64,000 bases of DNA. It comes from Candidatus Magasanikiibacteriota bacterium. GTDB taxonomy: Bacteria; Patescibacteriota; Patescibacteriia; Magasanikbacterales; UBA922. A program made the translations under genes and the position numbers. Position 1 is the stretch's first letter. Each line of letters opens with the position of its first letter. The DNA lies in contig JBPOIO010000004.1 in NCBI GenBank assembly GCA_052034405.1, positions 64,751 to 128,750 of the forward strand, in the 5' to 3' direction. The notes under the pieces were generated by a model. It was given only the letters and a program-made list of their open reading frames with translations. It did not search any database and was not told where the DNA came from. Positions 16,156-52,300 of the stretch are shown here, piece by piece.

Positions 16156-18821
16156 AGTAATGTAGATATTTGAGCTTGTAATTTTTCTAATTTTTCCATT
16201 GCCTCAGCAAGCTTCGCACGTTCTTTTTCGACGATTGGCGCTGGTGCACTCGTTGCAAAATCCCCTGCGAGTTTTGCTTCAAGTGACTTAACATATGGCG
16301 CAATAAGAGCAATTTCTTTTTGTAGACGTGCACGTTCTTTTTCTATATCAACCGCACTTGAAAAATCAAGGTATACTTCAATTCCACTTTCTACAAATGA
16401 AATTGCACCTTCTGTTTTTTCTGCATTTATACTTAAATCTTCAAGATTCGCAAGACGCAAAAATATTGCTTTATTTTCTATGATCAAATTTTCATTTTCT
16501 GCTACAAAATTTGCCTTGATTTTTTTTGCTGCTTCAATTTTGTATTCAGTACGAAGTGCTCGAATTTGAGTGATGATATGTTGCAGAGTAACAAAAGTGT
16601 TTGCATTGTTTTCGTTAATACTATTGTTTTCAATAAAAGGATATTTTTCTACCATCAAAATATTTTCTTCGCCATAAATTTCTTTCCACAAAGTTTCTGT
16701 GACATATGGCATAAATGGATGCCAGAGCTTCAAAATACTATTCAAAAGATAGTTCAAAATATCAGATTTTTCACCCTCAATTTTGGCAATTTCCAGATAC
16801 CAATCTGCCAAATCTCCCCAGGTAAAATCACGAAGACGCTCCCCTGCCGAAGAAAGATTGTATTTTTCAAGATCATTGATTGAGTCAAAAATCACTTGAC
16901 TCAGACGACTCAAAATCCAACGATCGGACAAAGTTTTTGCAACAGGAACAGCACTATCTTTTTTTGGATCAGAAATATTGAGCAGCATAAAGCGACTCAT
17001 GTTCCAAAGCTTGTTTGTAAAATTTCGAAATCCGGCAATCTTTTCTTCCGAGAGTTTCATGTCGTTTCCTGGAGTTGAGCCAAGAAGCAATGAAAGACGC
17101 GTTGCATCTGTTCCATACTTCTCGATCATATCAAGCGGATCGATAATATTGCCAAGCGATTTACTCATCTTGCGGCCCTGTTCGTCACGCACCAGTCCAT
17201 GCAAATATACAGTTTTAAATGGCACATCCCCAAGCGTGTAGGTTGTCATAAGGATCATGCGCGCCACCCAAAAGAACAGAATATCGTATCCTGTTTCAAG
17301 AACAGATGTAGGATGAAAGGTTTGCAAGTCTTTTGTTTTTTCTGGCCAGCCAAGAGTTGAAAAAGTCCAAAGACCAGAAGAGAACCAAGTATCAAGAGTA
17401 TCAGGATCTTGTATCCAGCCCTCACCTGCTGGAGCTTCTACTCCAACATACATTTCTTCGCCCCGATACCACACCGGAATTTGATGCCCAAACCAAATCT
17501 GGCGAGAAATACACCAATCACGCAAATTGTCGATCCAGTGAAAGTATGTTTTATCAAAACGCTCAGGCACAATTTCAATATTTCCTTCACGCACCACAAT
17601 CTGCATACGTTCTTTGAGACTGAGGTTTCCATTGAGTGCTGGAATTTTTGCATCATGGGTTTCTACTTTTTTGTTGACATCAATAAACCACTGCGTCTTT
17701 GGAAGTGGCTCCACAACATCTTTAAATCGATCACTGGTCCCAGCATTTTGCATAATATCTTCTTCTTTTTCGAGAAGCCCACTTTCAGAAAGCCAAGAAA
17801 CAACTTTGGCGCGCGCTTCTTCAACTGTGAGTCCAGCATATTCTGATCCAGCCTTCGCCGTCATACAACCATCTTCACCTATAACCTGAATAATGCCGAT
17901 ATCGTTGCCAAGTGCTTTTTGTTTTTGATACATCTCAAAATCAATTGGACTATGTGCTGTTGTTACACCAAGCGCCCCAGTACCAAAGCTATCATCAATT
18001 CCTTCGTCTCCAATAACTTTGATATGCAAAGTATGTCCCTCTTGCCCAAAATCAGAAACATCAAATTCTTGACCAATATATTGTTTCCACTTCCCATCAG
18101 GATGAACGGCAACAGCACTGTCCCCAAGTTTTGTTTCAGGACGAGTGGTCGCAATAGAAATTGGAAAATCTTTTGCATATTTGAAAGTATACAATTTTGC
18201 AGGACGTTCTACATATACAAGTTCATCATCACTACATGTTGACTGTCCTTTTACAGACCAATTGATCACACGGTATCCACGATAAATAAGCCCATCATCA
18301 TACATTTTTTTGAATACCGTTCGGACAGCTTGAGTACGAGCATCATCGAGTGTATAGGCTTCACGAGACCAATCCAGAGAACTTCCCATTTTTTTACTCT
18401 GATTCACAATCGTATCATGACTCTCCTTCGCAAATTTTTTCACGCGCTCCAAAAATACCTCGCGGCCGAGCTCTTCTTTTGGTTTTTTCATTCCTTCATC
18501 TTTGATCAAAATCCCTTCGACTTTTGACTCCGTTGCTACAGCCGCATGATCTGTCCCCGGAATCCAAAGAGTACGATCCCCTTTCATCCGGTGATATCGA
18601 ACCATACAGTCCTCGATTGCAAGCATCGCAGCATGTCCCATATGAAGTGTCCCCGTCACATTTGGAGGTGGCAAAACAATTGTAAAAGAATCCGCATCTG
18701 ACGCAGTTACACCCTTTTCAACACAAACATCGGGATTAAACAATCCGCTTTCTTCCCAGCGTTTATAAATAGCATCTTCATATTTTTTTGGCTCATATGC
18801 TTTATCAAGTTCTTTTGGCAT
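16152..18821 (-). CDS. valS: Valine--tRNA ligase
   Basis: The HIGH region PPPNVTGTLHMGHA, the KMSKS motif, the editing domain and the C-terminal coiled coil are all present. The product is 889 aa. Confidence 0.95.
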   Translation of the reverse strand: MPKELDKAYEPKKYEDAIYKRWEESGLFNPDVCVEKGVTASDADSFTIVLPPPNVTGTLHMGHAAMLAIEDCMVRYHRMKGDRTLWIPGTDHAAVATESKVEGILIKDEGMKKPKEELGREVFLERVKKFAKESHDTIVNQSKKMGSSLDWSREAYTLDDARTQAVRTVFKKMYDDGLIYRGYRVINWSVKGQSTCSDDELVYVERPAKLYTFKYAKDFPISIATTRPETKLGDSAVAVHPDGKWKQYIGQEFDVSDFGQEGHTLHIKVIGDEGIDDSFGTGALGVTTAHSPIDFEMYQKQKALGNDIGIIQVIGEDGCMTAKAGSEYAGLTVEEARAKVVSWLSESGLLEKEEDIMQNAGTSDRFKDVVEPLPKTQWFIDVNKKVETHDAKIPALNGNLSLKERMQIVVREGNIEIVPERFDKTYFHWIDNLRDWCISRQIWFGHQIPVWYRGEEMYVGVEAPAGEGWIQDPDTLDTWFSSGLWTFSTLGWPEKTKDLQTFHPTSVLETGYDILFFWVARMILMTTYTLGDVPFKTVYLHGLVRDEQGRKMSKSLGNIIDPLDMIEKYGTDATRLSLLLGSTPGNDMKLSEEKIAGFRNFTNKLWNMSRFMLLNISDPKKDSAVPVAKTLSDRWILSRLSQVIFDSINDLEKYNLSSAGERLRDFTWGDLADWYLEIAKIEGEKSDILNYLLNSILKLWHPFMPYVTETLWKEIYGEENILMVEKYPFIENNSINENNANTFVTLQHIITQIRALRTEYKIEAAKKIKANFVAENENLIIENKAIFLRLANLEDLSINAEKTEGAISFVESGIEVYLDFSSAVDIEKERARLQKEIALIAPYVKSLEAKLAGDFATSAPAPIVEKERAKLAEAMEKLEKLQAQISTLL

Positions 18822-19007
18822 AAAAATTTCAGTTTAGTAACCTTATAGTATCGAAATTTACAGTAAAAATCAAGTAAAAATAAAACCCATCCCCTTGAGG
18901 ATGAGCTTTTAAAAATATACAGAAAAACTCACCTCAAAGGAATTGGGCTACACGGACCACAGGATAACTCTGTACAAGATGATTTATCATATATGTTTAT
19001 ATAACCA

Positions 19008-19042
19008 CAACAGCCCCATGCTTGTCAAATAAGGGGCTGTTG
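19008..19042 (-). terminator. Hairpin (caacagcccc - 15-nt loop - ggggctgttg), immediately 3' of the lexA stop
   Basis: A 10-bp perfect stem lies between the lexA stop (19053) and the valS start region. No clean U-run follows, so it may act as a stabiliser or terminator. Confidence 0.35.
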
Positions 19043-19052
19043 TAGCCAATTT

Positions 19053-19637
19053 TTATGCGTATTTTCGAATAACACTCGTTACGACTCCACCAACACGAAG
19101 TTCATCCTGAGGATAAATGTCCTTGTATTTACGATTGGCTGGACGCAAAAAAGCATTTGCACCTTTTTGAATAAAAAATTTCAAAGTCCAACCCTGATCT
19201 ATCTCGGCTACCACCACATCACCACTTTTGGGGTGTTTTGACCGATCTACAATCACCATGTCCCCCTTCATAATTCCAGCATCAATCATAGAATCCCCCT
19301 CTACCGTCAATACATAGGCTGTATCCGGATTGCGAACCAACATCTCATCAAGACTAATCACCTCTGCCATAGCTTCTTCTTCACTACTCGTCGGAAAACC
19401 AGCCTGAATTGTCCCAAGAACCCGCAAACCATAAAGACGCTTGGTAGGAATAAGCTTGCCCGTCTCGCTCTTGGCCACAAGCCCATCATCAATAAATTTT
19501 TGAATATACGAATGAACAGAATTTTTGGATTTAACAGAAAAGACCTGGGTAAGCTCTTCGTAACTTGGCAAACGATGGTTCCGCTTATAAAAACGGAGAA
19601 CTTCTTCTTTTCGTTTTTTATACAAATTTTCAGTCAT
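19053..19637 (-). CDS. lexA: LexA repressor (S24 peptidase family)
   Basis: The N-terminus carries a winged HTH. The C-terminal S24 autoprotease region reads LTVEGDSMIDAGIMKGDMVIVDRS...VVAEID, with the Ser-Lys dyad context. The likely start is the ATG at 19635-19637 (MTENLYKKRKEE) rather than the earlier ATG of the track ORF. Confidence 0.88.
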   Translation of the reverse strand: MTENLYKKRKEEVLRFYKRNHRLPSYEELTQVFSVKSKNSVHSYIQKFIDDGLVAKSETGKLIPTKRLYGLRVLGTIQAGFPTSSEEEAMAEVISLDEMLVRNPDTAYVLTVEGDSMIDAGIMKGDMVIVDRSKHPKSGDVVVAEIDQGWTLKFFIQKGANAFLRPANRKYKDIYPQDELRVGGVVTSVIRKYA

Positions 19638-21068: not shown

Positions 21069-22646
21069 TTAAATCAAAGCCCGTCCACTCATCTCTGGCG
21101 GTTGTTCAAGTCCCAAAATACTCAAAATTGTTGGCGCAACGTCTGCAAGCATCCCAACCGGTGGCATAAGAGAGAGATCCCCTTCAATAGGATCCCCCGC
21201 TGGACCAGCCACTCCACGATACTGTTCACCAATAATCATAAAGGGCACAGAATTTGTACTGTGTTCTTTGTCAATTTCTCCAGTTTGCAAATTTTTTACT
21301 TCTTCCGCATTGCCATGATCTGCAGTAATGAGCAAGACCCCACCTTTGGCCATGGTATATTCGGCCAATGTACCAATCGCACGATCTACTGCTTCTACAC
21401 CCTTCACTGTTGCTTCCATATTCCCCGTATGCCCAACCATATCTGGATTTGCAAAATTCAAAAATATCACATCATATTGTTCTGCCTGAATTACTTTTAC
21501 TGTTTCTTTTACAATCTCATCTGCCGACATTTCTGGAGCCAAATCATAAGAAGCTACTTTTGGTGAAGGAATAATTTTGCGATCTTCTCCAGGAAAAGCT
21601 TCTTCACGAGTACCATTCAAAAAAAATGTTACATGCGCGTATTTTTCTGTTTCTGCAATATGAAATTGTTTCAGTCCTGCTTTACTAATCACTTCTGCCA
21701 AACAGTTACTTACCACCTGTGGAGGGAAAGCAACGGTCACGGGCAATTCTTTTTCGTATTCTGCCATGGTCACAAAAAACAGATCCTTCATGTATACCCG
21801 ATCAAATTTTGTAAAACCAGGAAGCACAAAAGCCTGTGCCAGTTGACGTGCACGATCTGGACGAAAGTTAAAAAATATCACTGAATCTCCATTTTCAATC
21901 TTGGCCGTAGGAGCACCTTCGGATCCAATAACCGTAGGAACAAATTCTTCGTCATATACTTTTTTGGCATAGGAAGCTTCTACTGCACTCACAGCGTCAG
22001 TTGCATACACATCTGCCCGACCATCGGTCATAGCAAGATATGCTTTTTGTACACGATCCCAACGATTATCACGATCCATGGCAAAATAACGACCTGACAA
22101 TGTTGCAATTTTTCCTACTCCAAGTTCTTTCATTTTTGCTTCAAGAAGTCGAACAAAATCAACCCCAGCATTGAAAATCGTATCGCGACCATCCAAAATT
22201 ACATGAACATAGACTTTATTCAAGCCCTGACGCTTACAAAATTCAAGTAAAGCAAACAAATGATCCTGCGAAGCATGCACATTCCCAGGACTCACAAGCC
22301 CGAGTAAATGTATAGGTTTGTCCGCAGATTTTGCATGCTCAGCAGCCTTTACAAAAGCAGTATTATCAAAAAAACTTCCGTCCTGAATACTTTTATTAAT
22401 GAGTGGAAATGTCTGGTAATATACTCGTCCTGCCCCAATATTGAGGTGTCCTACTTCACTGTTTCCCATTTCACCAAATGATAATCCAACTTCAGAACCC
22501 GAAGCGAGCACGGTCATCACTGGATATTCACGAATAAATTTGTCCCAATTTGGTTTATTCGCGCGAGTAATAGCATTGCCATCACTGTCTGGAGCAACGC
22601 CAAATCCATCCAAAATTGCAAGTACGAGTGGTTTAGGTCGAGGCAT
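21069..22646 (-). CDS. gpmI: 2,3-bisphosphoglycerate-independent phosphoglycerate mutase (iPGM), copy 1
   Basis: The N-terminal signature reads LVLAILDGFGVAPDSDGNAI...GSEVGLSFGEMGNSEVGHLNIGAGRVYYQ, and the C-terminal metal-binding motifs are ADHGN and DMVGHTG. The product is 525 aa. Confidence 0.93.
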   Translation of the reverse strand: MPRPKPLVLAILDGFGVAPDSDGNAITRANKPNWDKFIREYPVMTVLASGSEVGLSFGEMGNSEVGHLNIGAGRVYYQTFPLINKSIQDGSFFDNTAFVKAAEHAKSADKPIHLLGLVSPGNVHASQDHLFALLEFCKRQGLNKVYVHVILDGRDTIFNAGVDFVRLLEAKMKELGVGKIATLSGRYFAMDRDNRWDRVQKAYLAMTDGRADVYATDAVSAVEASYAKKVYDEEFVPTVIGSEGAPTAKIENGDSVIFFNFRPDRARQLAQAFVLPGFTKFDRVYMKDLFFVTMAEYEKELPVTVAFPPQVVSNCLAEVISKAGLKQFHIAETEKYAHVTFFLNGTREEAFPGEDRKIIPSPKVASYDLAPEMSADEIVKETVKVIQAEQYDVIFLNFANPDMVGHTGNMEATVKGVEAVDRAIGTLAEYTMAKGGVLLITADHGNAEEVKNLQTGEIDKEHSTNSVPFMIIGEQYRGVAGPAGDPIEGDLSLMPPVGMLADVAPTILSILGLEQPPEMSGRALI

Positions 22647-22795: not shown

Positions 22796-24370
22796 TTAAA
22801 TTAAAGATTTTCCAGTCATTTCTTTTGGCTTTTTAATACCAAGCAATTTTAATACAGTTGGAGCGACATCTGCAAGTTTTCCACTCTTTGCCTTCATTTT
22901 TTTCTTGAACAAATCTTTTTGCACAATGATAAACGGCACTGTGTTGATTGTGTGCTCGGTCAAATGTTCCCCTGTTACTTCATCAAACATTTCTTCGGCA
23001 TTGCCATGATCTGCCACAATCACTACGGTTCCATCTCTACGAAGTGTCGCCTCCACAATACGCGCCACAGCCCGGTCTACTGCTGTTACAGCAATCTTTG
23101 CAGCTTCAAAATCTCCTGTATGCCCAAGCATATCTGCATTTGGAAAATTCACACAGAAAAAATCAAATTTGCTCGAAGCCAAATATTTGAAAATACGTTT
23201 TGATATTTTTTTGATACTCATTTCTGGTTTCTCTGCATAGGACATTTCTTCAAAAGAAGAAACAAGTTCACGAATTTCACCATTAATGGCTTTGGCAAAT
23301 CCCCCATTCATAAAGTAAGTTACATGGGCATATTTTTCTGTCTCCGAAATAAAAAGCTGCCTGCGATTTTCACCAATCGCTTTTGCTAAACAATTTTGAA
23401 TATCTGGACTTGGAAATGCCGTCAAAATCCCTAGCAAGTCAGGACCAAAATCAGTAAGAGCCACAAAGCAAATATCTTTCAAGACTTTTTTTCTTTTGAA
23501 ACTTTCTATATTTTCTTCTTCAAAATCTTTTTGCACAATCGCCTTGGTAATTTGACGTGCACGGTCACTACGACAATTGAAAAAAATTACTGCATCATAA
23601 TCATTCATCTGAGCAATAGCTTTTCCATGCTCGGTAATAATCGTCGGAGTAATATATTCATCTGTTTCTCCTCGATTGTATCCGTGTTCCACCGCAGCTT
23701 CTGCACTTGGCGCTTTATGCATTCCTTCATCGAGCGTCAAGACATTGTATGCTTTTTCTGTACGATCCCAATTTTTGGCACGGTCCATGGCATACATGCG
23801 CCCCATGATACTAACAATTTTTTCATTGCCAGTCATATGTGTTCGCAAAATTCGAATATATTCTGTAGCAGAATGTGGAGAAGAATCACGACCATCGGTA
23901 AAGAGATGCAAATACACTGGAATTGTTTTTTCTTTTTTGAGCATGTCGAGAATAGCATAGAGATGCTCTGGATGTGCATGCGCACTTTGTCCATCGGTCA
24001 AAAGTCCCATCAAATGAATCGCACTTTTATTTTTGTGTGCATGTTCAATGGCTTTTTTGAGTGCAATATTTTTAAAAAATCTTCCGTCATCAATTTCTTT
24101 TGAAATAGTCACAAGATCTTGTTCGACGATACGTCCGGCACCAATATTGAAATGCCCCGCTTCACTATTGCCCTCTTGATCCGGAAAAAGTCCGACAGCT
24201 TCGCCATGAGCAGTAAGTTGTGTTGACGGATATTGGCGCATATATTCAAAAATATGCGGTGCCGTTTTGGGCGTAATAGCATTCCCAGGTAATTTGTGGT
24301 CACGAAGACCAAAGCCATCAAGGATAATGAGGAAAAAAGGTGAGTTTTTGGAAGTCTTTTTGGTAATCAT
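22796..24370 (-). CDS. 2,3-bisphosphoglycerate-independent phosphoglycerate mutase (iPGM), divergent paralog, copy 2
   Basis: The product shows FFLIILDGFGLRDHKLPGNAI...GEAVGLFPDQEGNSEAGHFNIGAGRIVEQ, ADHGNAEE and DMLGHTG. It is 524 aa and roughly 35-40% identical to copy 1 by eye. Confidence 0.9.
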   Translation of the reverse strand: MITKKTSKNSPFFLIILDGFGLRDHKLPGNAITPKTAPHIFEYMRQYPSTQLTAHGEAVGLFPDQEGNSEAGHFNIGAGRIVEQDLVTISKEIDDGRFFKNIALKKAIEHAHKNKSAIHLMGLLTDGQSAHAHPEHLYAILDMLKKEKTIPVYLHLFTDGRDSSPHSATEYIRILRTHMTGNEKIVSIMGRMYAMDRAKNWDRTEKAYNVLTLDEGMHKAPSAEAAVEHGYNRGETDEYITPTIITEHGKAIAQMNDYDAVIFFNCRSDRARQITKAIVQKDFEEENIESFKRKKVLKDICFVALTDFGPDLLGILTAFPSPDIQNCLAKAIGENRRQLFISETEKYAHVTYFMNGGFAKAINGEIRELVSSFEEMSYAEKPEMSIKKISKRIFKYLASSKFDFFCVNFPNADMLGHTGDFEAAKIAVTAVDRAVARIVEATLRRDGTVVIVADHGNAEEMFDEVTGEHLTEHTINTVPFIIVQKDLFKKKMKAKSGKLADVAPTVLKLLGIKKPKEMTGKSLI

Positions 24371-27474: not shown

Positions 27475-28746
27475 CTAAACGTGATCGTATTCATGAAGTG
27501 TAAGCTGTGCCTCAATTTGTTTTGCTGTTTCAATACAAACACTCACCACAATGAGGATACTTGTTCCACCAATAATCAAAGATTGACTACCTGTAAAAAA
27601 CTGTAAGATATTTGGAAGTACGGCAATAATCCCAAGAAACAAAGCTCCTGAAAAAACCAAACGATGCATGATAGTTCCAATATATTCTTCGGTTTGTTTT
27701 CCTGGACGAATACCTGGAATAAATCCACCTTGACGCTGCAAATTTTCTGCAATTTTTTGAGGTTGGAAAATAACAGCAGTATAGAAATAGGTAAATCCAA
27801 ATACCAAGACAAAATATGCTACTCCGTAAAACAATTGATTTTGAAACAAAGTAATCACCTGCTGAGCAAAAATAGCTCCACGACCAGTTCCTCCAACAAA
27901 GAATTGAGCAATTACGGTTGGAAATAACACAACAGATATAGCAAAGATAATTGGAATTACACCAGCCATATTCACACGAAGTGGAAGGTGTGTACTTGCT
28001 CCAGCAGTCCCATATCCACCACGGCCTTGTTTGGCATAACTTACTGGGATATTTCGTTGACCTTCACTAATAAGTACGACTCCAAAGATAGTAAGAACAA
28101 CAACCGCAAGATATCCAATATAGGTCAAAATATTTGAAGAATCGTAGTTGACAATAACTGTTTGCAATGTTTGAGGAAGAGAAGATACGATTCCCGCAAA
28201 GATAAGAAGTGAGATACCATTTCCTACTTTTCGCTCTGTAATAAGTTCACCAATCCACATGAGGAACATGGTTCCGGCCGTTGCAGTAATCATAATTGCA
28301 GCCACAGAAAATGGAGAGATATCTGTCAAAATTCCACCACCTTGGCGAGAAAGAAGTTTGATAAGTCCATATCCTTGGAGCATCGCAAGAGGTACAGCTG
28401 CGATACGTGTATACATGCTAATTTTTTGTTGTCCTGATTCACCTTCTTTGGTCAATTCTTCAAGAGAAGGAATCACCATAGCAAGAAGCTGGAAGATAAT
28501 TGAAGCAGTAATATATGGAGCAACACCAAGAGTCACAATAGAGAAACTTTTGAGTGTTCCACCAGAAAAAACATTGAGAAGACCAAGAACCTGATTTCCT
28601 TCAAGAAAACTTTTCAAGGCCGCAGTATTAATTCCAGGAACTGGAATATGAGCAACGAGACGGAAAACAACAAGCAAAAAAATAACAAAAAGCAAATCTT
28701 TGCGAACAGAAGGAATCCCCCAAATGCGTTTCAATTTTTCAAACAT
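27475..28746 (-). CDS. secY: Preprotein translocase subunit SecY
   Basis: The 423-aa product has 10 TM segments and the SecY signature GVAPYITASIIFQLL. It sits in the conserved position after rplO. Confidence 0.95.
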   Translation of the reverse strand: MFEKLKRIWGIPSVRKDLLFVIFLLVVFRLVAHIPVPGINTAALKSFLEGNQVLGLLNVFSGGTLKSFSIVTLGVAPYITASIIFQLLAMVIPSLEELTKEGESGQQKISMYTRIAAVPLAMLQGYGLIKLLSRQGGGILTDISPFSVAAIMITATAGTMFLMWIGELITERKVGNGISLLIFAGIVSSLPQTLQTVIVNYDSSNILTYIGYLAVVVLTIFGVVLISEGQRNIPVSYAKQGRGGYGTAGASTHLPLRVNMAGVIPIIFAISVVLFPTVIAQFFVGGTGRGAIFAQQVITLFQNQLFYGVAYFVLVFGFTYFYTAVIFQPQKIAENLQRQGGFIPGIRPGKQTEEYIGTIMHRLVFSGALFLGIIAVLPNILQFFTGSQSLIIGGTSILIVVSVCIETAKQIEAQLTLHEYDHV

Positions 28747-28771: not shown

Positions 28772-29221
28772 CTAGAATTTCAATGTGCCGCCGTTTTGTT
28801 CGATAGAAGCAATAACTGATTTTGAAGCAAGGCATCCTGTAAGATTCAATGCTTTTGTCAATTTTCCTGAAGCAATAATTTTTACTCCGTTTTTGGCACT
28901 ACGGATAAGTCCGCGGTCTTCCAAAATTTGAGGACTTACTTTTGCACCAGAAGCAAATACGCGTTCAAGTGTAAAAAGAGTCACAGCTTGAGGTTTCAAA
29001 AGTGAAGCTTTGAATCCCAAACCACGAAGTTTTGGTACTTTTTGAAGAGCATGTTTAAAAGAGCGACGAGCATTTCCACCACGTCCACCAGAACGAGCTT
29101 TTTGCCCTTTGGTTCCACGACCAGCAGTAGTTCCCTTTTGAGAACCATTACCACGTCCAACGCGTTTACTTTTACGGTTAGAACCAACACTTGGTTGTAG
29201 GGTATGAAGTTGAAGACTCAT
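28772..29221 (-). CDS. rplO: 50S ribosomal protein L15
   Basis: The Gly/Arg-rich N-terminus reads RKSKRVGRGNGSQKGTTAGRGTKGQKARSGGRGG. The product is 149 aa. Confidence 0.9.
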   Translation of the reverse strand: MSLQLHTLQPSVGSNRKSKRVGRGNGSQKGTTAGRGTKGQKARSGGRGGNARRSFKHALQKVPKLRGLGFKASLLKPQAVTLFTLERVFASGAKVSPQILEDRGLIRSAKNGVKIIASGKLTKALNLTGCLASKSVIASIEQNGGTLKF

Positions 29222-29231
29222 AATTCAATGA

Positions 29232-29816
29232 TTATTCTGCTTTTTTAGTTTCTTTTTTTGTTGCAACTTTCTTTACTGTTTTTGCAGTTTCAGAAGCAAC
29301 TTTTGGAGCTTCACTTTTTGAAGCAGGTGCACGATGTCCCTCTTTTTTAAAGAGTTCCAAAGCTTTAAAGGTCGCTTTTACATTTGTTACTTTGTTATTT
29401 GTTTTACTGAGTGTTTTTGCAGAAGCATTTGGAACACCAGCCATTTCAAGAACGATACGAGTAGCACCACCAGCGATAATACCAGATCCGATAGGAGCAG
29501 GTTTAAGCATGATGTGAGCTGCTTTAAATTTGGCTTCTACACGATGTGGGATAGTTTGTTTTTTCAAAGGAACACGAATAATGCATTTTTTTGCTTGATT
29601 TACTGCTTTTTCTACAGCAATTTGTACATCTTTTCCTTTGTCAACACCATAACCAACGCGACTATTACGATCACCGATAAGAACAGTGGCACGAAAACTC
29701 ATTTGTTTTCCACCTTTGGTCACACGAGTTACGCGAGCCAAATCCAAAATATGCTGGTCAAATTCAGGTTTTTCTTTTTTTTCTCCTCTAAATTTTCCTT
29801 TTCCTTGCTGTACCAT
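29232..29816 (-). CDS. rpsE: 30S ribosomal protein S5 (with a Lys/Ala-rich C-terminal extension)
   Basis: The S5 dsRBD and C-domain read VTRVTKGGKQMSFRATVLIGD...GSGIIAGGATRIVLEMAGV. It is directly followed by rplO with a 10-nt gap, and no L30 gene intervenes. Confidence 0.9.
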   Translation of the reverse strand: MVQQGKGKFRGEKKEKPEFDQHILDLARVTRVTKGGKQMSFRATVLIGDRNSRVGYGVDKGKDVQIAVEKAVNQAKKCIIRVPLKKQTIPHRVEAKFKAAHIMLKPAPIGSGIIAGGATRIVLEMAGVPNASAKTLSKTNNKVTNVKATFKALELFKKEGHRAPASKSEAPKVASETAKTVKKVATKKETKKAE

Positions 29817-29846
29817 ATTGAAATAATTTTAGAATCTATTTTTATT

Positions 29847-30170
29847 TTAGAATTCAAGTCCACCTTCACGAGCACCATCAGCAACTGCTTTTACTCGACC
29901 ATGGTAGGCATATCCAGCGCGGTCAAAAACTACTTTCTTGATTCCAAGAGCAATAGCTTTTGCAGCAATCTGTTTTCCAAGTTCTTGTGGTTCATCATGT
30001 TTCATTCCAACAAGTGTTGTACCTTTTGTATCATCAATAATCTGAACGTACAAAGATTTCAGAGATCTGAAAACAGACAAACGTGGACGTTCTGTTGTAC
30101 CAAGTACACGAGAGCGAACACGAGCTTTGCGGCGATTTCTCTTTTGAATTCGAGTCGTAAGTTTTTTCAT
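29847..30170 (-). CDS. rplR: 50S ribosomal protein L18
   Basis: The product matches [20 protein letters not shown]...[26 protein letters not shown]. Confidence 0.9.
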
Positions 30171-30197
30171 ATATTTTTGATACAGGTCTATTTATTT

Positions 30198-30737
30198 TTA
30201 AGATTTAGCAGTTTTTCCTGCTTTACGACGGATCACTTCATCCATATACTTGATACCTTTTCCTTTATATGGTTCTGGTTTACGAATCTGACGAATTTCG
30301 GCAGCAATCGCACCAAGAAGTTCTACATCAAATGATTCCAAAGTAATAACATTTTTTTCTACAGAAACAGTCAAATGTTCAGGGATTTTGAAAATCACAG
30401 GATGAGAAAAGCCAACATCAAGTCGCAAATCTTTTCCTTGCATAGCAACTTTATATCCAACTCCGTTTACTTCAAGTTGTTTTTTGAAACCAGTGGTAAC
30501 ACCATTGACCATATTTTGAATATGAGCACTGTATGTTCCCCAAAGTGAACGTTCTTTCTTTTCTTCTTTATTGACAACATCAACAGTAATAGCATTGTCA
30601 GCCATCGTCAAGTGAACGATTGCAGGAACAGCGCGTTTGAGTTCCCCTTTTGGTCCTTTTACAGTAACCAAATCAGGTTTCAAATCGACTGTAACTCCCG
30701 CAGGAATGGTAATAACTTGTTTTCCAATACGTGACAT
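30198..30737 (-). CDS. rplF: 50S ribosomal protein L6
   Basis: The product starts MSRIGKQVITIPAGVTV...VKGPKGEL and carries two L6 repeats. It is 179 aa. Confidence 0.9.
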   Translation of the reverse strand: MSRIGKQVITIPAGVTVDLKPDLVTVKGPKGELKRAVPAIVHLTMADNAITVDVVNKEEKKERSLWGTYSAHIQNMVNGVTTGFKKQLEVNGVGYKVAMQGKDLRLDVGFSHPVIFKIPEHLTVSVEKNVITLESFDVELLGAIAAEIRQIRKPEPYKGKGIKYMDEVIRRKAGKTAKS

Positions 30738-30742
30738 ATAAT

Positions 30743-31132
30743 TTAGAAAATACTACAAATAATTTCTCCACCAATTCCTTTTTGTCGAGCTTCTTTGTTT
30801 GTCATAAGACCAACAGAAGTTGAAACGATAGCAATACCGTAGTCATTGAGAACACGAGGTAAATCTTCTGCTTTCACATACATTCGGTGTCCTGGCTTAC
30901 TTTCACGTTTGATAGATGAAATAGCAGGAGTTCTGCCATCATACTTGAGGGTGATGCGCAGTGCTGGACGTTCAGCGTCAGTTTTTTCTACACTCAAAAG
31001 ATAGCCTTGGTTTTGCAAGATTTGGGCAATGTTTTCTTTGAGCTTAGAAAATGTCACTTCAATAACGCGTTTGTGTGCACGTTGTGCATTGCGAATTGAT
31101 GTGAGCATGTCAGCAATAGGATCAGTCATCAT
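30743..31132 (-). CDS. rpsH: 30S ribosomal protein S8
   Basis: The product starts MMTDPIADMLTSIRNAQRA and is 129 aa. Confidence 0.9.
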   Translation of the reverse strand: MMTDPIADMLTSIRNAQRAHKRVIEVTFSKLKENIAQILQNQGYLLSVEKTDAERPALRITLKYDGRTPAISSIKRESKPGHRMYVKAEDLPRVLNDYGIAIVSTSVGLMTNKEARQKGIGGEIICSIF

Positions 31133-31374: not shown

Positions 31375-31926
31375 TTATTTTGCATCTCTAAATGGAAAAC
31401 CGAGTTTCGACAAAAGGAGTTGACCTTCTTTTGGATTCTTTGCAGAAGTCGAAATAACAACTTGGAGTCCATGAATTTTATCAATTGCATCAATACCGAT
31501 TTCTGGGAATGCAATGTTTTCTTTAAAACCAATTGAATAATTTCCTTGTCTATCAAAATTTTTCACAGAAACTCCACGAAAATCACGAACACGAGGAAAA
31601 GTAATGTGAATCAATTTATATAAAAAGTTATACATTGATGGTCCTCGAAGTGTTACTGACATACCAATTTCCATTCCTTCACGAATTTTGAAGTTAGAAA
31701 TTGATTTGGTTGTTTTATTTCGAACTGGCTTTTGTACAGTATTCTAAGTAACAGTATTTGCAACATTTTCAATATAAGCGTTGTCTTTGACATGACGCCC
31801 ATACCCAACGTTGACCACAATTTTTTTGAGGGCAGGAACTTGCATGATATTAGTATATCCAAGCTCGCTCTTCAAATCTTTTTGGATTTTTTTGTATTGT
31901 TCGTACAGTGGAGACATATATAACAT
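31375..31926 (-). CDS. rplE: 50S ribosomal protein L5, reading frame interrupted by an in-frame TAG at 31744..31746
   Basis: The track ORFs 31744..31926 (L5 N-terminal, ...GYTNIMQVPALKKIVVNVGYG...ENVANTVT*) and 31375..31674 (L5 C-terminal, MEIGMSVTLRG...FPRVRDFRGVS...GNYSIGFKE) share a frame, since 31926-31674=252. The connecting segment reads NTVQKPVRNKTTKSISNFKIREG, which matches E. coli [23 protein letters not shown]. An 8-nt direct repeat AATACTGT flanks the stop, consistent with a 15-nt in-frame insertion. Confidence 0.85.
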
Positions 31927-32642: not shown

Positions 32643-32918
32643 TTATTTCTTATTTACCAAAAACCAACGTTTTCGAGTTGAAAGTGGTCGGCATTCTTCA
32701 ATCGTTACCACATCCCCTACTTTTGCAATACCTTGTTCATCATGAACTGCAAAATTTCGGCGTTGTTTGTATTGTTTATTATATTTTGCTTGTACTTTGA
32801 TACTTTCAACACACACTTTCACAGTTTTGATTCCAGAAACAGAAACCACAACACCTTCAAACTGGCGCTTGCGCACTTCAGGGACTTTCGTTTCTTTTTT
32901 TACAGTCTTTTTTTCCAT
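32643..32918 (-). CDS. rpsQ: 30S ribosomal protein S17
   Basis: The product shows [23 protein letters not shown]...[22 protein letters not shown]. Confidence 0.9.
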
Positions 32919-39714: not shown

Positions 39715-40413
39715 CTAAACAGGCTCTTCCAAAAAAATAGGATCTTCCCCCTCTATTTCTGTCGCCATTTCACTTGTATTTTCTTCAAAACTCAAAACCT
39801 TCACAGATTCTGGAGATACGGGACTAAAATTTTTTCCTGTAAAAGTCCAATCTGTCCAAGAAAGTGCTCCAGCAAGATTAGGAACTGGATAATACGCAGG
39901 TTCTTCTTTTGCGAGTTCTTCCTTTGTTGCTACTTCTATCTTTGAAGATTCTTCGCCCAATTGGTGCCATTCTGGAGTATGGATCAAATCCTCTTCAAAA
40001 GGATCTGCTGGTGGATTTTCGAGAAGTTCTTCTTCCAAAGTCTTTTCTATTTCTTCACGTTCTTTTTCTTCACGTTTGGCCTTCCAAAGAGCCAGTTCTT
40101 CATTGCTTTGTTCGATTTCATCAAATTCTTTCCCTTCCTTCGCCGCATCAATTTTTTCTGTTATTTTTTCTTCAAGTTCTTCAAGATCATCAACAAGATT
40201 TACCGCACTATAGTTTCTTTGCAACAGCTCTTCGCCATGAGCATTTTGAGAAGGGTAGCTATTTTGAGACATTTTTCCAAAATTTTCTTCAAAATAGTCA
40301 AGCCCCATAAGTACTCCAGCACGATCGTATTTTGAGTCATACACAATTACAGGAACATTGTGATCTTCTGACATTTTCAACAATCTTTTCAAAAGTTGGT
40401 TCATACAGTACAA
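39715..40413 (-). CDS. Hypothetical highly acidic protein
   Basis: The 232-aa product has a short ordered N-terminus (NVPVIVYDSKYDRAGVLMGLDYFEENFG) followed by an extremely Glu/Asp-rich low-complexity region. It lies between the 16S rRNA and tuf. Confidence 0.35.
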   Translation of the reverse strand: MYCMNQLLKRLLKMSEDHNVPVIVYDSKYDRAGVLMGLDYFEENFGKMSQNSYPSQNAHGEELLQRNYSAVNLVDDLEELEEKITEKIDAAKEGKEFDEIEQSNEELALWKAKREEKEREEIEKTLEEELLENPPADPFEEDLIHTPEWHQLGEESSKIEVATKEELAKEEPAYYPVPNLAGALSWTDWTFTGKNFSPVSPESVKVLSFEENTSEMATEIEGEDPIFLEEPV

Positions 40414-40682: not shown

Positions 40683-42205
<1,523 letters not shown>

Positions 42206-42601
42206 TGAAAAGTAAAATAGTAAACTATCTTACAGATGTAAATCCCCAAATAAATGGGGCTTGAGATCTTGATAAATCTATAGACTCTTGTTTTGTATTC
42301 TTTCGAATACGGGTTCTTGTCACATTTTTATTGTGAATTTTTTACATTTTTGTTTCCTTACCTTTTTGTTGCATTTTGGTTGTATTCAATTGTAGAGAAC
42401 GCTTTCTCGAACGAGCCAAGAAAGAAAAAAGAGAAACCAATATATGTTCAGTTGCTCTTTTTTCTATCCTAGTTTTCTGCATTTGCAGAGCCTTGAGGAA
42501 GGGAGTTTTTTAAGTTGTAGCTCTTCTTGTTTTGTGGCCGTATTGTATATGAAGAATTATCCCCTGTCAAGTGCTGCTATTTTTGAAAAACTGTGGATAA
42601 G

Positions 42602-43381: not shown

Positions 43382-46300
43382 TTAAAGAGAATTGAGCACC
43401 GAGCGAGTTCCAGGACCTACAATTCCAAGATCTTCAAGGCCATGAGCACGCTGAAATGCTTTTACAGCTTCGACAGTCACAGGTCCATATAGTCCTGTTG
43501 TTTCATGATTGAAAAATCCTTGGGAAGCCAATATTTTTTGGAGGGCTTCTACTTCGCTGCCACTATCATTGAGAACAAGTGAATGTGTAAAAGTAAAACC
43601 CGAAGAAAGTGTCTGTCTATTGGGCAACAAAGAAGACTCTTCTCCAATTTGAGTTCCATCTCCATAAATGCTTGAAGCAGGAAGACGAATAATACGATCG
43701 GTTCTATAATTTAAACTTTTCCAAGCTGATTCACTCGCAATATAACGTTTCAGAAAAATTGAACTGTCTGCCACACTTGGTTCAAGAAAATACAAACGAG
43801 GAGAGTCTGCATACCCAATCACACTCAAAGCAGGTGCTTCGTTTTTTGAAATGACATCACCTTCTGCAAACATATCCAAAAGTTCCTGCGCTACATCTTC
43901 TACATAATTCCACTCAAAACCAAGACTCTTGAATATTTCTTCACTCGTAATAACGTGTTTTTTACCATTTACCAACAAATAAACATTTGGATCAGATACC
44001 ACTTTCATAAGAGTTCCATTTTGTGGAGCATATCGAGGACCCCGTGGCATAAATCCAAGTGCATCATCTGGAATATTTGCCAAATCTGCTTTTGGAACTA
44101 CCTGGACATCACTCCAAGAAGCAAAATAACTAAAGAATATTGGAGATGCTTTAAATGCACGTTTTGTACATGAACCTTCTATTGGCTGACCATCTTTGTT
44201 GTAAGGTGGAGTAATATAGTACACAGCATTTGAGTCGGGAGATTTGTAAGGACGACCCAAGTGTAAAGAACAACTTGTCATACTATGCAGCAACTGAATG
44301 CTCGCACTCGTGTCAAAAACACCTCCTGATTTTGAACGAAATCGTACGTATACGGTCTTTGGTCCATCTCCAAATGGAAGCGCCCAGACAGAACTGGTAG
44401 TAAATGTTTGGAAGGTTGCATCACTAAAATCAGGATTATTTGAAATTGCAACAAAAGATGCATTTACGATATTAAACTGCATATGTACCATACGAGAGAA
44501 TGTTTGCTTTGCTCCATTATTGATAAACACTGGAAGGAGTTCTTGTATTTCTGTAAAAGTAAATTTTGGATTTTTACCAAGCAAACCATCATACACAACA
44601 CGAAGATCAGGAATTCCATTTTTATCCGTATCCAAAATTTGAGCAATGTCTTTTTTCAAATGAACAACAATTGGCTCTGATTCAATAACAAGTACAGCCT
44701 CATCAGCACTTGCAGATACACGAATCACACGGTGAGAAGATGAAGGAAAATTGAGAGATTCACTATCTTTTGTCGTAAATACAATAGAGATATCACTCTC
44801 TCCGTTATTACTCAAAAGCGGAACGAGAGGAACACTTGGAATAGTCATAGCCCCTCCACCACCTCCAGCTTTTATAGGATCGCTCACAGCATCATTATCT
44901 GTAATATGTGCTGTTATATCTGCAATCACAATACCATTATATGAGATATCTGCAGAAAGTGCCGTTGCGGTAAGAGTACTTGTATGAGCACCCTCATCGA
45001 CAGCATCATCTACTGCAGTAACAGTCACTTCTACTGGAATGTTCCAACGATCTGGAGTAAAAGTAATACTGGTTGTAGAAAGCGTTGATTGTGCATCTGA
45101 AGCGAGCGTAACAACTACATCCGCTGTAGGAGTAGAACCAAGCACAAGAGTATAGCTATCGCTCGATCCAGCTTCAGAAATATCAGTCGAAGCAACACTC
45201 TCTACTACATTTATTCCAACTCCATCGTCATCAATATTTGTGACACTTACGTCATCAGGATTGAGTGCATTATAATGTGCATCTCCAGAAACTGCAGCAT
45301 CCAAAACTATACTAAAATCAATATCTCCATCATCAAAATAATCATCAACTCCGCTTACGGTTATAGTTCGTGGAATATTCCAATCTGCAGGCCCAAAAAC
45401 AAGAGTGCTGCTATTCACTGTTCCCTCTGTTAAATCCGAACTTGAAAGAGTTGTTGTTACAGGACCACTTGGCTCAGAATTCAAAACAAGTGTAAAAGTA
45501 GCCGTTGTTCCTGCTTCACTGGTATCTCCAGAAATAAGAGATACAGTAAATCCAGCAATATCATTATCGGTAATATGAGCAGTCACATCAACAATCGCAA
45601 GACCATTATAATTTGCATCGAGTGAAGAAGCACTTGCTGTAATTGTAGAGTCATGAGGATCTTCGACACTATCATCATTGAAAGCGCTTACTGTAATTGT
45701 TTGAGCAACATTCCAATTTGTAGAAGTGAAAACAATACTACTGGTTGAAACCGTCGACTGTGCATCTGGAGTTATTGTAATAGTGACATCATTTATTGGT
45801 TCTGTATCAAGCACAAGTGTATAGCTATCTGTTGCTCCACCTTCTGTAATATTTGTTGCTCCACCACTTTGGGTAAGACTTATTCCAGCAACATCATTAT
45901 CTGTATTTAGAGCATCTACATCACTGGCATTGAGTCCATCATAGTTATCATCAGTTGAACTTGCAACGCCATTTACAAGAGAATAGTTGATGGGACCATC
46001 CGCAATCAAATCATCAACTCCAGTTACAGTAACTGTTTGTGGGATATTCCAATTGAGTACTGTAAAAGTAAGCAAAGCTTGATCCACAGTAGCTTCACTT
46101 GCATCTGAACTTGATACTGAAATAAAGACATCATCTCTTGGTTCTGAATCCAAAACTACAGTATAGGTAGAAGTTGTTCCGCTTTCACTGGTATCACCAG
46201 AAATAGCAGAAACAGTAATACCTGCAGTATCATTATCTGTAACATTTGCGATTACATCACTTGTTGCAATAAGGTCATAGTTGATATCGAGAGAACTTAC

Positions 46301-49300
46301 GGTATGAGTAATTGTAGAAATATGCAACCCTTGGCTCACAGCATCATCGACAGCAGTAGTTGTTACTACACGTGGGATATTCCAATTGGCAATATTAAAC
46401 ACCAGAGAACTTGTCGAAATTGTTGAGGCCGCATCCGAAGTAATTTCAATTGTTACGTCTGCAAGAGGAAGTGCATTTAATACAATGGTATAAGAATCTT
46501 CAACACCACCTTCGGTAATATCAGTTGTTCCAAGTGACTCTGTCACTGTTACGCCTGGAGTATCGTTATCAATAACATTTGCCGTTAAATCAGCAATAGC
46601 AATTGCATTGTACGCTGCATCGAGAGAATCTGCGCTGTGAGTAATCACACTTGTATGTGGTCCTTCTACATCCGCATCGTCTTCTGCCATAACGCTTACA
46701 GATACAGGGATATTCCAAGTCGAACTGCTAAAGCTAATAGAAGTTGTTGAAAGTGTCGACTCCGCATCAGGAGTAAGCGTAATAGTAACATCCGAACTTG
46801 GCTTGGAATTCAATACAATAGTGTAGCTATCGCTAGCTCCCCCTTCGGCAATATTTGTCGTATCCGCACTTTGAGCAAGGGTCACTCCAGCGCTATCATT
46901 ATCGGTGATATGTGCCGTAATATCTGCCACCACAATAGCATCATACCCAGGATCAGTACTGGTAACACTGTGTGTCAGTGTAGAGTCATGAGCTCCCTCG
47001 GCAACAAGATCATTTACCGCCGTTACAGTAATAGTTTGGGCGATATTCCAAGTGCTGGTAGTAAATTGAATGGAACTTGTTGAAAGTGTCGCCTCTGCAT
47101 CTGCTGCAATATGCACAAAAACAGTATCCAAAGGTTCTGAACTCAAAACAATTGTATAACTATCTGTAACACCAGCTTCAGTAATATTTGTAGTACCAGC
47201 TGATTCTGTCAGAACCACACTATTACTATCATTATCTGTAATATGTGCTGTTAAATTTGGGATAATCACAGCATTATACTGCACATCATCTGACGATACA
47301 GTCTGAGTAATTGTTGAATCATGCGCTCCTTCTGTAAGACTATCATCTACAGCAGTCACAGTAATTGTCTGTGCAATATTCCAAGTTGTACTTGTAAAAA
47401 TAATACTCGAAGTCGAAAGTGTACTTTGTGCATCTGAAGTTAGAGTAATGCCCACAGTAGAACTTGGCTCAGAAGTAAGCACCAGTGTATAACTATCTGT
47501 AGCCCCACCCTCTGTAATATTTGTAGCAGCCGCTGACTCTGTCAAAGTTATCCCAACATTATCATTGTCTGTAACATTTGCAATAACATCAGGAATAGCC
47601 AAAGCATCGTAGGCTGGGTCAGTACTCGTCACACTATGAGCAATAACAGAGTTATGTCCTCCCTCAGCAAGATGATCATTCACAGCAGTCACGCTAATAG
47701 TTTTTGCAATATTCCAAGTGCTCGTTGTAAATATAATACTTGAAGTAGAAACTATACTCTGTGCATCTGAGGTAATATTTATTGACACGTCCCCTGTTGG
47801 CTGTGAGTTGAGTACCAAAGTATAGCTATCACCCGCAGCACCCTCTGTAATATCGGTTGTTCCCGCAGATTCTACAAGAGTAATTCCTACGCTGTCGTCA
47901 TCGCTATTGGTAACAGATACATCAGCAGGATTAAGTCCCGCATAGTGAACATCTGTAGAACTTGCAGTATCAAGAATTATACTATAGGCAATATCTCCGT
48001 CGACCAAATCATCATCAACACCCGTAACAGTCACCGTACGAGGCAAATTCCAAGAAGCAGCATCAAAAACTAAAGTACTGGTATTGATCGTTCCCTCTGT
48101 TGTATCCGAACTATGTACTGTTGTGGTGACTGTGCCACTTGGAGGACTATCAAGAACAACCGTAAAAGTAGCAGTACCCCCCGCCTCTGTTGTGTCCCCA
48201 GAAATAAGAGAAACAGTAAACCCAGCAGCATCATTGTCGCTTACATTTGCAATCACACTATCAATCGCAATTCCATCATATCCAAGGTCAGTAGAAGTTG
48301 CTGTATGTGTAATCGTACTGGTATGGTCACCTTCGGCAATAGCATCGTTAAGCGCTGTCACCGTAATAGTCTGAGCAATGTTCCAATTCAAAGGGGTAAA
48401 TACAATAGAACTTGTTGAGATTGTACTTTGAGCATCAGGACTCAAACTCAGAGCAACATTTCCTGTTGGCTCTGAATTCAATACAATCGTATAACTATCT
48501 GTTCCTCCCCCTTCGCTAATATCCGTTGTTCCTGCAGATTCGCTAATAGTCACTCCAACACTATCATTATCTATATTGGTTACAGATACATCTGCTGGAT
48601 CAAACCCATCATAATTCAAGTCTGTTGAAGTTGCTGTATCCAAAATTATCGAATAATCAATATTACCATCAACAAGAGCATCGTCCACACCTGTCACTGT
48701 CACCGTTCGAACAAAATCCCAATCATCCGGACTAAATACAAGGGTAGAGGTATTTATAGTTCCTTCTGTAGTATCAGAACTATGTACTGTTGTAGTTACA
48801 ATTCCTGTAGGAGGAGTACTCAAAACAACCGTAAAGGTTGCTGTACCACCAGCTTCTGTCGTACTCGCAGAAATGAGTGATACAGTAAATCCTGCTGTGT
48901 CATTGTCTATGACATTTGCTACCACATCCACAATAGCAATACCATCATATCCTGGATCAGTTGAGGTAACAGAGTGAGTAATCGTTGAAAAATGAGCCCC
49001 TTCATCAAATATATCATCGACCGCAGTAATTGTAAGAGTCTGAGCTACATTCCAATTTATTGGAGTAAAAACAATACTCGAAGTAGAAATAGTCGAGTCT
49101 ACATCAGCACTTAGACTCACAGCAACATCTCCTGTTGGTTGCGAATTCAAAACAATCGTATAACTATCTGTCGCTCCACCTTCTGTAATATCTGTCGTTC
49201 CTCCTGACTCAACAAGAGTTATCCCAACAACATCATTATCAATATTTGTAACAGCAACATCTGATGGATTTATTCCAGCATAGTTGACATCGTCCGTTGA

Positions 49301-52300
49301 AGTCGCCGTATCCAAGATAATTGAATAATTGATATTCCCATCTGCCAAAATATCGTCTACCCCAGTAACCGTCACAGTTCGTGCCAAATTCCAAGATCCA
49401 GGACTAAATACCAAAGTTGAAGTTGTAATCGTTCCTTCTGTTATATCACTACTATGAATCGTTGTGGTTACAATTCCTGTAGGAGCTGCATCCAAAACAA
49501 CCGTAAAGGTTGCAGTACCACCAGCTTCTGTCGTACTCGCAGAAATGAGCGATACAGTAAATCCTGCTGTGTCATTGTCTGTAATATTTGCGGTGACAGA
49601 CCCAATCATAATACCATCGTAAGCACCATCGGTACTGGTTGCACTATGAGTAAGGGTGCTCGTATGGGCTCCTTCAACTACAGCATCATTTACAGCGGTT
49701 ACAGTAATAGTTTGTGCGGTATCCCAATTTGCTGGAGTAAAGACAATACTACTGGTAGACACAGTGGCATCAGCATCAGCACTCACACTAATTGCAACAT
49801 TCCCTGTTGGTTGAGTATTCAAAACAATGGTATATGAGTCTGTTGCTCCGCCTTCTGTAATATCTGTTGTCCCTGCAGACTCGGTCACTGTCACTCCAAT
49901 AGTGTCGTTATCTGTATTTGTAACATTGACATCATTTGGGTTTATTCCTGCATAATTTACATCCACAGTAGACGTTGCAGTATCAAGAATAATTGTATAT
50001 GCAATATCACCATCACTCACAAAATCATCGACTCCGGTCACGGTCACGGTTCGAGGAATGTTCCAGTCATTGGAATGAAATACGAGTGTACTGGTAGTAA
50101 TCGTACCTTCAGTTGTATCACTACTGTGAATAGTGGTCGTCACAACTCCACTTGGCTCAGAATTTAATACCACAGTAAAAGTAGCAGTAGCACCAGCTTC
50201 ACTTGTATTTCCAGAAATCGCAGAGACGGTAAATCCAGCAGTGTCGTTATCCGTTACGGTGGCAACCACATCTCCAACCGCAATACCCTCATACCCCTCA
50301 TCCGTACTTGTGACGGTATGGGTAATGGTACTACTATGTTCACCCTGTTGAACGGCATCATCAACCGCTGTCACAGTGACGGTTCGTGCCACATTCCAAT
50401 TTGAAGTTTGAAAGGTAATACTACTGGTTGAAAGAGTTGACTCGCCATCTGTATTAAGATGAATTGCTACATTTCCCGTAGGCTGAGTATTCAAGACAAT
50501 AGTATAGGTATCAGTAGCTCCCCCTTCGGTAACATCCGTTGTACCGTCAGATTCTACTAAAGTCACGCCAGCACTATCATTGTCAAGATTGACCAACATA
50601 TTTACATCATCTGGATTCATACCATCGTAATTTGGATCTGTCGAAGTTGCAATATCCAAAATAACACTATTTGGCTGATTTCCATCATCAATATCATCAT
50701 CAACACCCGTCACAATCACAGTTCGGGTAAGATTCCAATCCTCAGGACTAAAAACCAAAGTACTTGTATTGATTGAATGTTCTGTCGCATCAAGAACATG
50801 AACGGTTGTAGTGACAATTCCTGAAGGCTCCGAAGTCAAAACAACAGTAAACGTTGATGTAGTTCCGGCTTCACTCGTATCACCCGAGATAGCAGAGACG
50901 TCAAATCCTGCAGTATCATTATCTGTAATATTAGCAGTTACATTTGGAAGAACAAAAGCATCGTATCCAGGATCTGTTGAGGTAACCGTATGGGTGATTG
51001 TAGTTGTATGTCCCCCTTCTGCAATAGCATCATCAACAGCTGTAACCGTAATAGTTTGGGCCACATTCCAATTCGCAGGAGTAAAGACAATACTACTCGT
51101 AGAAAGAGTAGATTCCGCATCTGGAGAAATACTTACCGCAACATGAGCACTTGGCTCTGTATCAAGTACAAGTGTATAACTATCCGTTGCTCCACCCTCT
51201 GTAATATTTGTTGCTTCAAAAGATTCTACAAGAGTAATACCTGCAGTATCATTATCGGTATTTGTAACAGATACATCAGCAGGATTCATACCACTATAAG
51301 TAAGATCCGTACTTGTAGCACTATCCAAAATTATAGAATAAGCAACATCTCCATCATCAACACTATCATCAACGCCAGTAACTGTCACCGTACGAGGCAA
51401 ATTCCAAGAGTCAGCATCAAAAACCAAAGTACTCGTGTTGATCGTTCCCTCTGTGGTATCCGAACTATACACCGTTGTCGTTACACTTGCACTTGGTTGA
51501 CTATCAAGAACAACAGTAAAAGTAGCAGTCCCACCAAATTCACTCGTATTTCCAGAAATTGCTGATACTGTAAATCCCGCTGTGTCATTGTCTGTAATAT
51601 TGGCAGTCACACTCGCAACAGCAATTCCATCATAATTTGCATTGGTACTAGTCACAGTATGCGTAATAACACAAGTATGTCCACCTTCTACAACACTATC
51701 ATCCACAGCTGTAGCAGTAACCGTTACCGCTCTATTCCAGTTTCCAGAAGTAAAAGAAATAGAACTTGTCGAAACAGTACATTCTGTATCAGAAACAAGA
51801 GCAATGTTGACGGTTCCTGTTGGAGCACTTGTCAACAGCAAAGTATAGGAATCTGTCAAACCTGCTTCGCTTATATCAGTAGTTCCCCCACTTTGAGTCA
51901 CTGTTACTCCTGCGCTATCATTGTCTGTAATATTAGCAGTAACCGAAGCAATTACAATAGCATTGTAATCACTGTCAGTACTCGTAGCACTATGCGTAAT
52001 AGTAGCACTGTGCAAACTCTCTGAATAGTCATCGTCAACAGCTGTCACTGTGATAGTTTGTGCAACATTCCAATTTGCAAGAGTAAATACAATACTTGAT
52101 GTTGAAAAAGAAACCTGTGAATCCGATGCGATATTTACAAAAACATTTCCTGTTGGTAAAGAGTTCAGTACTATAGTATAGGTATCTGTAGCAGCAGCTT
52201 CTGTAACATTGGTAGAACCAGCACTTTGACTGATCGTAACCCCCGCAGAGGCAGGAGCTTCGTTATCCGTATTTGTTACAGAAACATCCAAAGGGTTTAT

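Follow-up and report, generated by a model that had tools for sequence, protein, structure and literature searches.

Genomic context of the interrupted gene

The stretch of DNA analysed here (64 kb, hereafter referred to as the window) carries, on the minus strand, the S10/spc ribosomal protein operon of a low-GC bacterium (~39% GC), in the order tuf, rpsJ, rplC, rplD, rplW, rplB, rpsS, rplV, rpsC, rplP, rpmC, rpsQ, rplN, rplX, rplE, rpsN, rpsH, rplF, rplR, rpsE, rplO, secY, adk and map. The gene for ribosomal protein uL5, rplE (31375–31926, minus strand), was identified from its translation, Pfam domains, PDB chains and gene order, and it is interrupted by an in-frame stop codon. The source organism belongs to the Patescibacteria/CPR, and the best L5 matches among the species representatives in genome_contigs were found in Paceibacter, Parcubacteria and Magasanikbacteria MAGs (63–67% identity), which places it no more than broadly, in Patescibacteria/Parcubacteria-like lineages. 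The gap between rpsE and rplO is 10 nt (29222–29231), with no rpmD (L30) gene there; the loss of L30 is a hallmark of the CPR/Patescibacteria.

Several other features were recorded in the window. A complete 16S rRNA gene (40684–42209, minus strand, 1419 bits) has no adjoining 23S rRNA gene in the window; it is followed immediately by a hypothetical gene and the tuf-S10 operon, suggesting that the rRNA genes are not linked. A class A RNase P RNA (10170–10545, plus strand, 184.6 bits) adjoins a Leu-GAG tRNA gene (10584–10667, minus strand). A single ORF of 4057 residues (43382–55555, minus strand) presumably encodes a giant surface or secreted protein, and cofactor-independent phosphoglycerate mutase (iPGM) is encoded by two paralogues in tandem (21069–22646 and 22796–24370, minus strand; 525 and 524 residues), both of which also occur in the JGI contig L171. 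No convincing ORF was found on either strand at positions 1–940 and 1830–2420, and these segments gave no Rfam match at the gathering thresholds.

The rplE gene and its in-frame stop codon

The rplE gene consists of 183 codons and a TAA stop (552 nt). Translation gives a single frame throughout, with 60 codons, a TAG at codon 61 (31744–31746, minus strand) and a further 122 codons before the TAA. An internal ATG (Met85; 31672–31674, minus strand), which had been proposed as a restart site, encodes the methionine of a conserved R-E-G-M stretch and is identical in all relatives. The coordinates given in the original prediction for the gene, the TAG and this next ATG, the single frame and the quoted 15-mers were all correct.

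The predicted product of rplE is clearly uL5. With X placed at the stop, it matched PF00281 with 57.4 bits (residues 26–82 against positions 1–57 of the 57 in the profile; gathering cut-off 34.9 bits) and PF00673 with 115.2 bits (residues 86–179; gathering cut-off 27.8 bits), the two domains being in order and collinear. The N-terminal fragment alone scored 33.5 bits with PF00281, under the cut-off. Bacterial uL5 chains in the PDB matched the product with E values down to 5.7e-53, and rplE occupies its conserved operon position between rplX (L24) and rpsN (S14), in the gene order L14-L24-L5-S14-S8. An unbroken frame with the I-[TS]-G-Q-K-P motif of uL5 is lacking; the window reads stop-N-T-V-Q-K-P.

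Comparison with close relatives

Relatives were selected as contigs encoding an identical neighbouring L24 protein, which yielded 13 contigs from NCBI, JGI, Logan and ENA assemblies. All the complete L5 genes on these contigs are uninterrupted, with 183 residues and 552 nt, and the nucleotide alignment of rplE from the window and nine relatives contained no internal gaps (mean column identity 97%). Comparison with orthologous rplE genes, suggested as a check in the original prediction, proved informative: all ten relatives read TCG ATT ACT GG(A/C) with no stop, and the TAG was thus seen in none of ten independent assemblies that are 95–98.5% identical to the window. The position of the internal TAG reads TCG in L171, L172 and L001. 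The window is 98.5% identical to a JGI contig (L002/L171) over 6.3 kb, with zero gaps, and 95–98% identical to the other relatives; judged from these alignments, it represents a distinct strain. The TAG-allele pattern had no exact match in genome_contigs or metagenome_contigs. Furthermore, both L5 fragments, the S17, L2, L16 and S8 proteins of the window and a strain-specific hypothetical protein are not on record as gene products, so no second sampling of the window strain was reached.

The closest public relatives carry lesions of a different kind. In L171 (JGI 3300056626), two 1-nt insertions split rplD and a 1-nt deletion splits an iPGM gene (positions 3791–4419 and 17965–19550 of the contig), and in L172 (JGI 3300056999), 1-nt indels split tuf and disrupt the start of rplE (1168–2357 and 8811–9363). 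These indels have the appearance of errors made in sequencing or assembling the two contigs, and rplD, iPGM, tuf and the start of rplE are all intact in the window.

Divergence from the relatives is unevenly distributed along the window. There are zero differences from L002 at 29664–30826, and 29350–30830 is 100% identical to L174, with the neighbouring kilobases ~2% different; this mosaic identity suggests recombination among co-existing strains. In a hypothetical protein (39715–40413, minus strand), codons 47–69 are hypervariable, with nearly every residue unlike those of L171 and L172, and the gene has a 12-nt indel at 40251; the flanking genes are 97–100% identical.

Private substitutions in rplE and rpsQ

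We considered as window-private any position that differs from every relative covering it, and 39 such positions were found in the ribosomal operon. Three of them, all transversions at codon position 2, form a cluster in rplE (31736–31745, minus strand), where the relatives read ACT TCG ATT ACT GG(A/C) CAA AAA CCA and the window reads ACT TAG AAT ACT GTA CAA AAG CCA. The first changes TCG to TAG (31745, Ser61 to stop), the second ATT to AAT (31742, Ile62 to Asn) and the third GGA to GTA (31736, Gly64 to Val). The adjoining private change, a synonymous AAA to AAG transition at Lys66 (31729, minus strand), looks like ordinary divergence. Among ~170 diverse bacterial loci, uL5 varies at position 61; 168 of 169 loci have Ile at position 62 and all 169 have Gly at position 64. 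In the predicted protein, the stop therefore comes with two changes at essentially invariant residues of the I-T-G-Q-K-P motif.

The alignment and the private-variant table revealed a second cluster in rpsQ (S17), a pair of window-private transversions at 32789–32790 (minus strand). The pair changes CAT CCA to CAA GCA, replacing His43-Pro44 of a conserved motif, HP in all relatives, with Gln-Ala. In S17 from other loci, these positions are occupied by His (76/83) and Pro (66/83), and never by Gln or Ala. The pair resembles the rplE cluster in style, lies ~1 kb away from it and probably represents the same kind of error.

The 34 private changes outside the two clusters comprise 32 synonymous and two conservative substitutions (Ile to Thr and Ile to Val), with 20 transitions, 11 transversions and three mixed cases. 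By contrast, the five changes within the clusters are all nonsynonymous and all transversions. The rplE gene has eight other private changes, all of them synonymous and at third positions. Six of these lie downstream of the TAG, where there are no nonsynonymous private changes, so this 3' part has been under purifying selection on the window branch, and an old pseudogene is thereby ruled out. The rplE lesion is either very recent or not real. It is private, clustered, unlike the background divergence and located at invariant residues.

Gene length, repeats and local folding

The original prediction placed the TAG inside a 15-nt duplication-like insertion. The gene-sense sequence on which this was based, AATACTGTTACTTAG followed by AATACTGTACAAAAG, is present in rplE and contains an exact 8-nt direct repeat with copies 15 nt apart, but there is no 15-nt insertion or duplication. 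Neither extra length relative to the orthologues nor an alignment gap, as a tandem duplication or insertion would leave, was found: rplE has 552 nt in the window as in every full-length close relative and aligns with them without gaps, solved bacterial uL5 chains in the PDB align across the stop with no gap, and the PF00281 profile (1–57/57) covers the region without an insertion. The removal of 15 nt had been thought to restore collinearity with E. coli L5. However, rplE is already collinear with the 15 nt kept and, given the equal length and gap-free alignments, their removal would create a 5-residue deletion, which was present in none of 172 homologous loci.

The downstream copy of the repeat, gene-sense AATACTGT (31736–31743), reads ATTACTGG in the relatives, and the upstream copy (31751–31758) is shared by the window and every relative. 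Two of the three transversions thus turn a 6/8 quasi-repeat into an exact one, and this is why a duplication had been perceived. By itself, an 8-nt repeat is short and close to chance. When three random substitutions, spaced as in the window, were placed in the ancestral gene 20,000 times, such a repeat arose in 1.5% of the simulations; in this post hoc test, a repeat was scored if it was direct and local, had a length of at least 8 nt and included two of the mutated sites. This result is suggestive of templating, either by biological template switching or by misalignment during consensus building or read correction. However, the C to A change that makes the stop is unexplained by templating from the quasi-repeat and runs against it. 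No ectopic template for the mutated 21-mer or for the rpsQ 18-mer was found elsewhere in the window.

In the relatives, codons 61–69 of rplE (31718–31746 of the window, minus strand; 3498–3524 in L002) form a hairpin, with arms TCGAttaCTGG and CCAGtTCGA and the loop acaaaaa. Every private change in this segment lies in the 5' arm or the loop, and the hairpin is lost from the window. The 121-nt fold around and downstream of the stop is no better in the window than that of shuffled sequences, with a z value of −1.32, as against −3.16 for the relatives' version, which folds better because the wild-type bases pair as this small hairpin. An RNA structure stimulating read-through was also sought here and rejected, given the weak fold of the window and the weakening of the hairpin by the mutations.

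Origin of the interrupted rplE allele

We suggest that the rplE cluster is probably an error of the sequence record, introduced locally during sequencing or assembly. An artefact was among the explanations initially offered for the TAG, and it is the one that best fits a private lesion in which a tight cluster of three transversions destroys two invariant residues. The TAG is part of a 10-nt, three-substitution cluster in an otherwise intact, normal-sized and strongly constrained rplE gene. The consensus bases would be wrong as a result of sequencing, read correction or local assembly, and the underlying reads would lack support for them. The living organism would have TCG ATT ACT GGA (Ser-Ile-Thr-Gly), like its relatives, and would make a normal 183-residue uL5. 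The route by which the error arose is speculative; the candidates are misalignment with the quasi-repeat that lies 15 nt upstream and difficulties caused by the local hairpin. We infer that the lesion originated in silico or in the library, and not in the cell.

This reading is favoured because the lesion is private, with ten independent assemblies having the wild-type codons and no public match to the TAG allele, and because a second cluster of the same style occurs in rpsQ, 1 kb away. It is also favoured because both clusters consist entirely of nonsynonymous transversions on a mostly synonymous background, because the invariant Ile62 and Gly64 have been struck, and because the same neighbourhood is error-prone in public assemblies, as illustrated by the 1-nt indels in L171 and L172. 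The post hoc simulation adds a hint of templating, and the purely synonymous private changes downstream of the TAG agree with a lesion that is recent or not real. The presence of the anomaly in one assembly and its absence from near-identical independent ones is as expected for a local assembly error. Finally, such errors are documented as corrupting coding genes in MAGs. Chen et al. (2020, Genome Res, PMC7111523) reported 13 of them in one 1.13-Mb curated CPR genome, defining a local assembly error as a consensus without perfect support from even one read, and described these errors as a routine MAG defect that spreads incorrect protein sequences into databases. Counting against an error, the window has no frameshifts over the comparable 20 kb and otherwise looks like a clean assembly, templating from the quasi-repeat accounts for two of the three substitutions and not for the one that makes the stop, and a consensus sequence would have the same appearance after a genuine multi-nucleotide mutation.

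Such a mutation, real and very recent, is the next explanation to be weighed, although we regard it as rather unlikely. A single event, such as error-prone synthesis or a template switch involving the upstream quasi-repeat (15 nt away), would have changed three bases within 10 nt and produced a dead rplE allele, and the assembler would have caught a minority, dying or non-viable sub-population, or relic DNA. A tight, transversion-only cluster is what a single event would be expected to leave, and the upstream quasi-repeat is matched at two of the three changed positions (P ~0.015 in the simulations). The lack of decay downstream of the stop, with its six synonymous and no nonsynonymous private changes, and the otherwise clean assembly are also consistent with this scenario. 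However, uL5 is essential in E. coli and would be expected to be encoded by a single-copy gene in small CPR genomes, and an allele with a stop and two changes of invariant residues should not attain consensus frequency in a living population. Furthermore, the rpsQ cluster would demand that essential genes 1 kb apart had each undergone an event of this kind, and the allele is present in no other assembly.

It is improbable that the allele is real and remains functional because full-length uL5 is still made from it, either by amber suppression, with a tRNA whose anticodon is CUA, or by UAG read-through at a high level. The preserved frame and the purifying selection on the 3' part of the gene on the private branch would be accounted for in this way, and a suppressor tRNA may be encoded elsewhere, the window giving a view of 64 kb of the genome. 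However, no tRNA with a CUA anticodon was found in these 64 kb, in which the Leu-GAG tRNA is the sole tRNA, so the search for a suppressor suggested in the original prediction yielded no candidate in the window. TAG is also a routine terminator: it ends secY (27475–27477, minus strand), rplO in the same operon (28772–28774, minus strand), ruvX and a hypothetical gene, all of which also end in TAG in L171, and terminates 15 of the 64 ORFs of a greedy ORF set (TAA 38, TGA 11). The other conserved genes of the window contain no in-frame TAG, and the sequence downstream of the stop has no notable RNA structure. A conserved stop in a stimulatory context in the relatives, the mark of programmed read-through or bypassing, was not observed, as no relative has the stop. 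Moreover, the product of suppression or read-through would still have Asn62 and Val64 at invariant positions. Our search of the literature on amber or in-frame stops in Patescibacteria found nothing relevant. We consider it more doubtful still that the TAG-Asn-Thr-Val haplotype truly dominates in a living patescibacterial population, which would then produce its essential uL5 by efficient UAG suppression or read-through in spite of the changes at two otherwise invariant residues. If it did, it would imply an unrecognised suppressor system, or an unusual tolerance in the 5S rRNA-binding protein of a CPR ribosome.

A split or bypassed L5, made either as residues 1–60 plus a product restarted at Met85 or by a hop past the stop between the AATACTGT or ACT repeats, is extremely improbable. 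A GAAGGA sequence precedes the ATG at 31674, and the TAG is flanked by matched ACT codons and by the AATACTGT repeats. However, the uninterrupted relatives all have these ATG, GAAGGA and ACT sequences unchanged, and there they simply encode R-E-G-M and Thr60/Thr63. Restarting at Met85 would drop residues 61–84, the second half of PF00281 (profile positions 36–57), and a hop between the ACT codons or between the AATACTGT repeats would delete three or five residues, giving a product without the I-T-G motif; no such deletion or split was found in the 172 homologous loci. Restart and hopping were therefore rejected as explanations, and none of read-through, restart and hopping would restore the Ile62 and Gly64 of I-T-G-Q-K-P.

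The idea that TAG has become a sense codon throughout the genome, or that it is recoded in the pyrrolysine manner, is effectively refuted within the window. An altered code known from some CPR lineages offers a precedent of sorts, although it is UGA to Gly (code 25) and not UAG. Against such a change, TAG here ends well-conserved proteins at their normal length, with the same stops in a relative, occurs in frame once in ~60 genes, and is neither recurrent within genes nor avoided as a terminator, the close relatives having the same stop usage and Ser at codon 61. Even taken jointly, a split or bypassed gene and a reassigned code remain very improbable.

If the haplotype were real and fixed, it would be of interest, as an essential ribosomal protein would then depend on stop-codon suppression. 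With a local error in the sequence record as the preferred reading, the main value of the rplE lesion is as a caution. It could be mistaken for recoding or for the splitting of an essential gene, and a gene caller would give two L5 fragments, lowering marker-gene completeness scores.

Relationship to known systems

The rplE lesion resembles the local assembly errors described in MAGs (PMC7111523) in that one gene of a CPR-type MAG is corrupted by a brief segment of the consensus while its neighbours are fine. It differs from them in being a pure substitution, with no change in length. A classical amber mutation of the type associated with supE and supF in E. coli is similar in involving a one-base change, TCG to TAG, in an otherwise intact gene. 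However, rplE has two further missense changes at invariant residues, 3 and 9 nt away, and, in contrast to the pairing of an amber mutation with its suppressor, the window has no suppressor tRNA and uses TAG as a routine operon terminator.

Mutagenesis by quasi-repeats and template switching offers another parallel, as two of the three rplE substitutions perfect a 6/8 copy of a sequence 15 nt upstream. Unlike in that process, the change that makes the stop is not templated in register, and the local hairpin is destroyed rather than perfected. As in the bypassing of phage T4 gene 60, the codon immediately before the stop in rplE, ACT, is found again a few codons further on. However, these ACT triplets are ordinary conserved Thr codons in uninterrupted relatives, and a hop between them would delete conserved residues. 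The Gracilibacteria and Absconditabacteria, in which UGA encodes glycine (code 25), belong to the same broad bacterial radiation and also have a stop codon inside conserved genes. The case of rplE is different, since it concerns a single occurrence of UAG, and both TAG and TGA terminate genes in the window.
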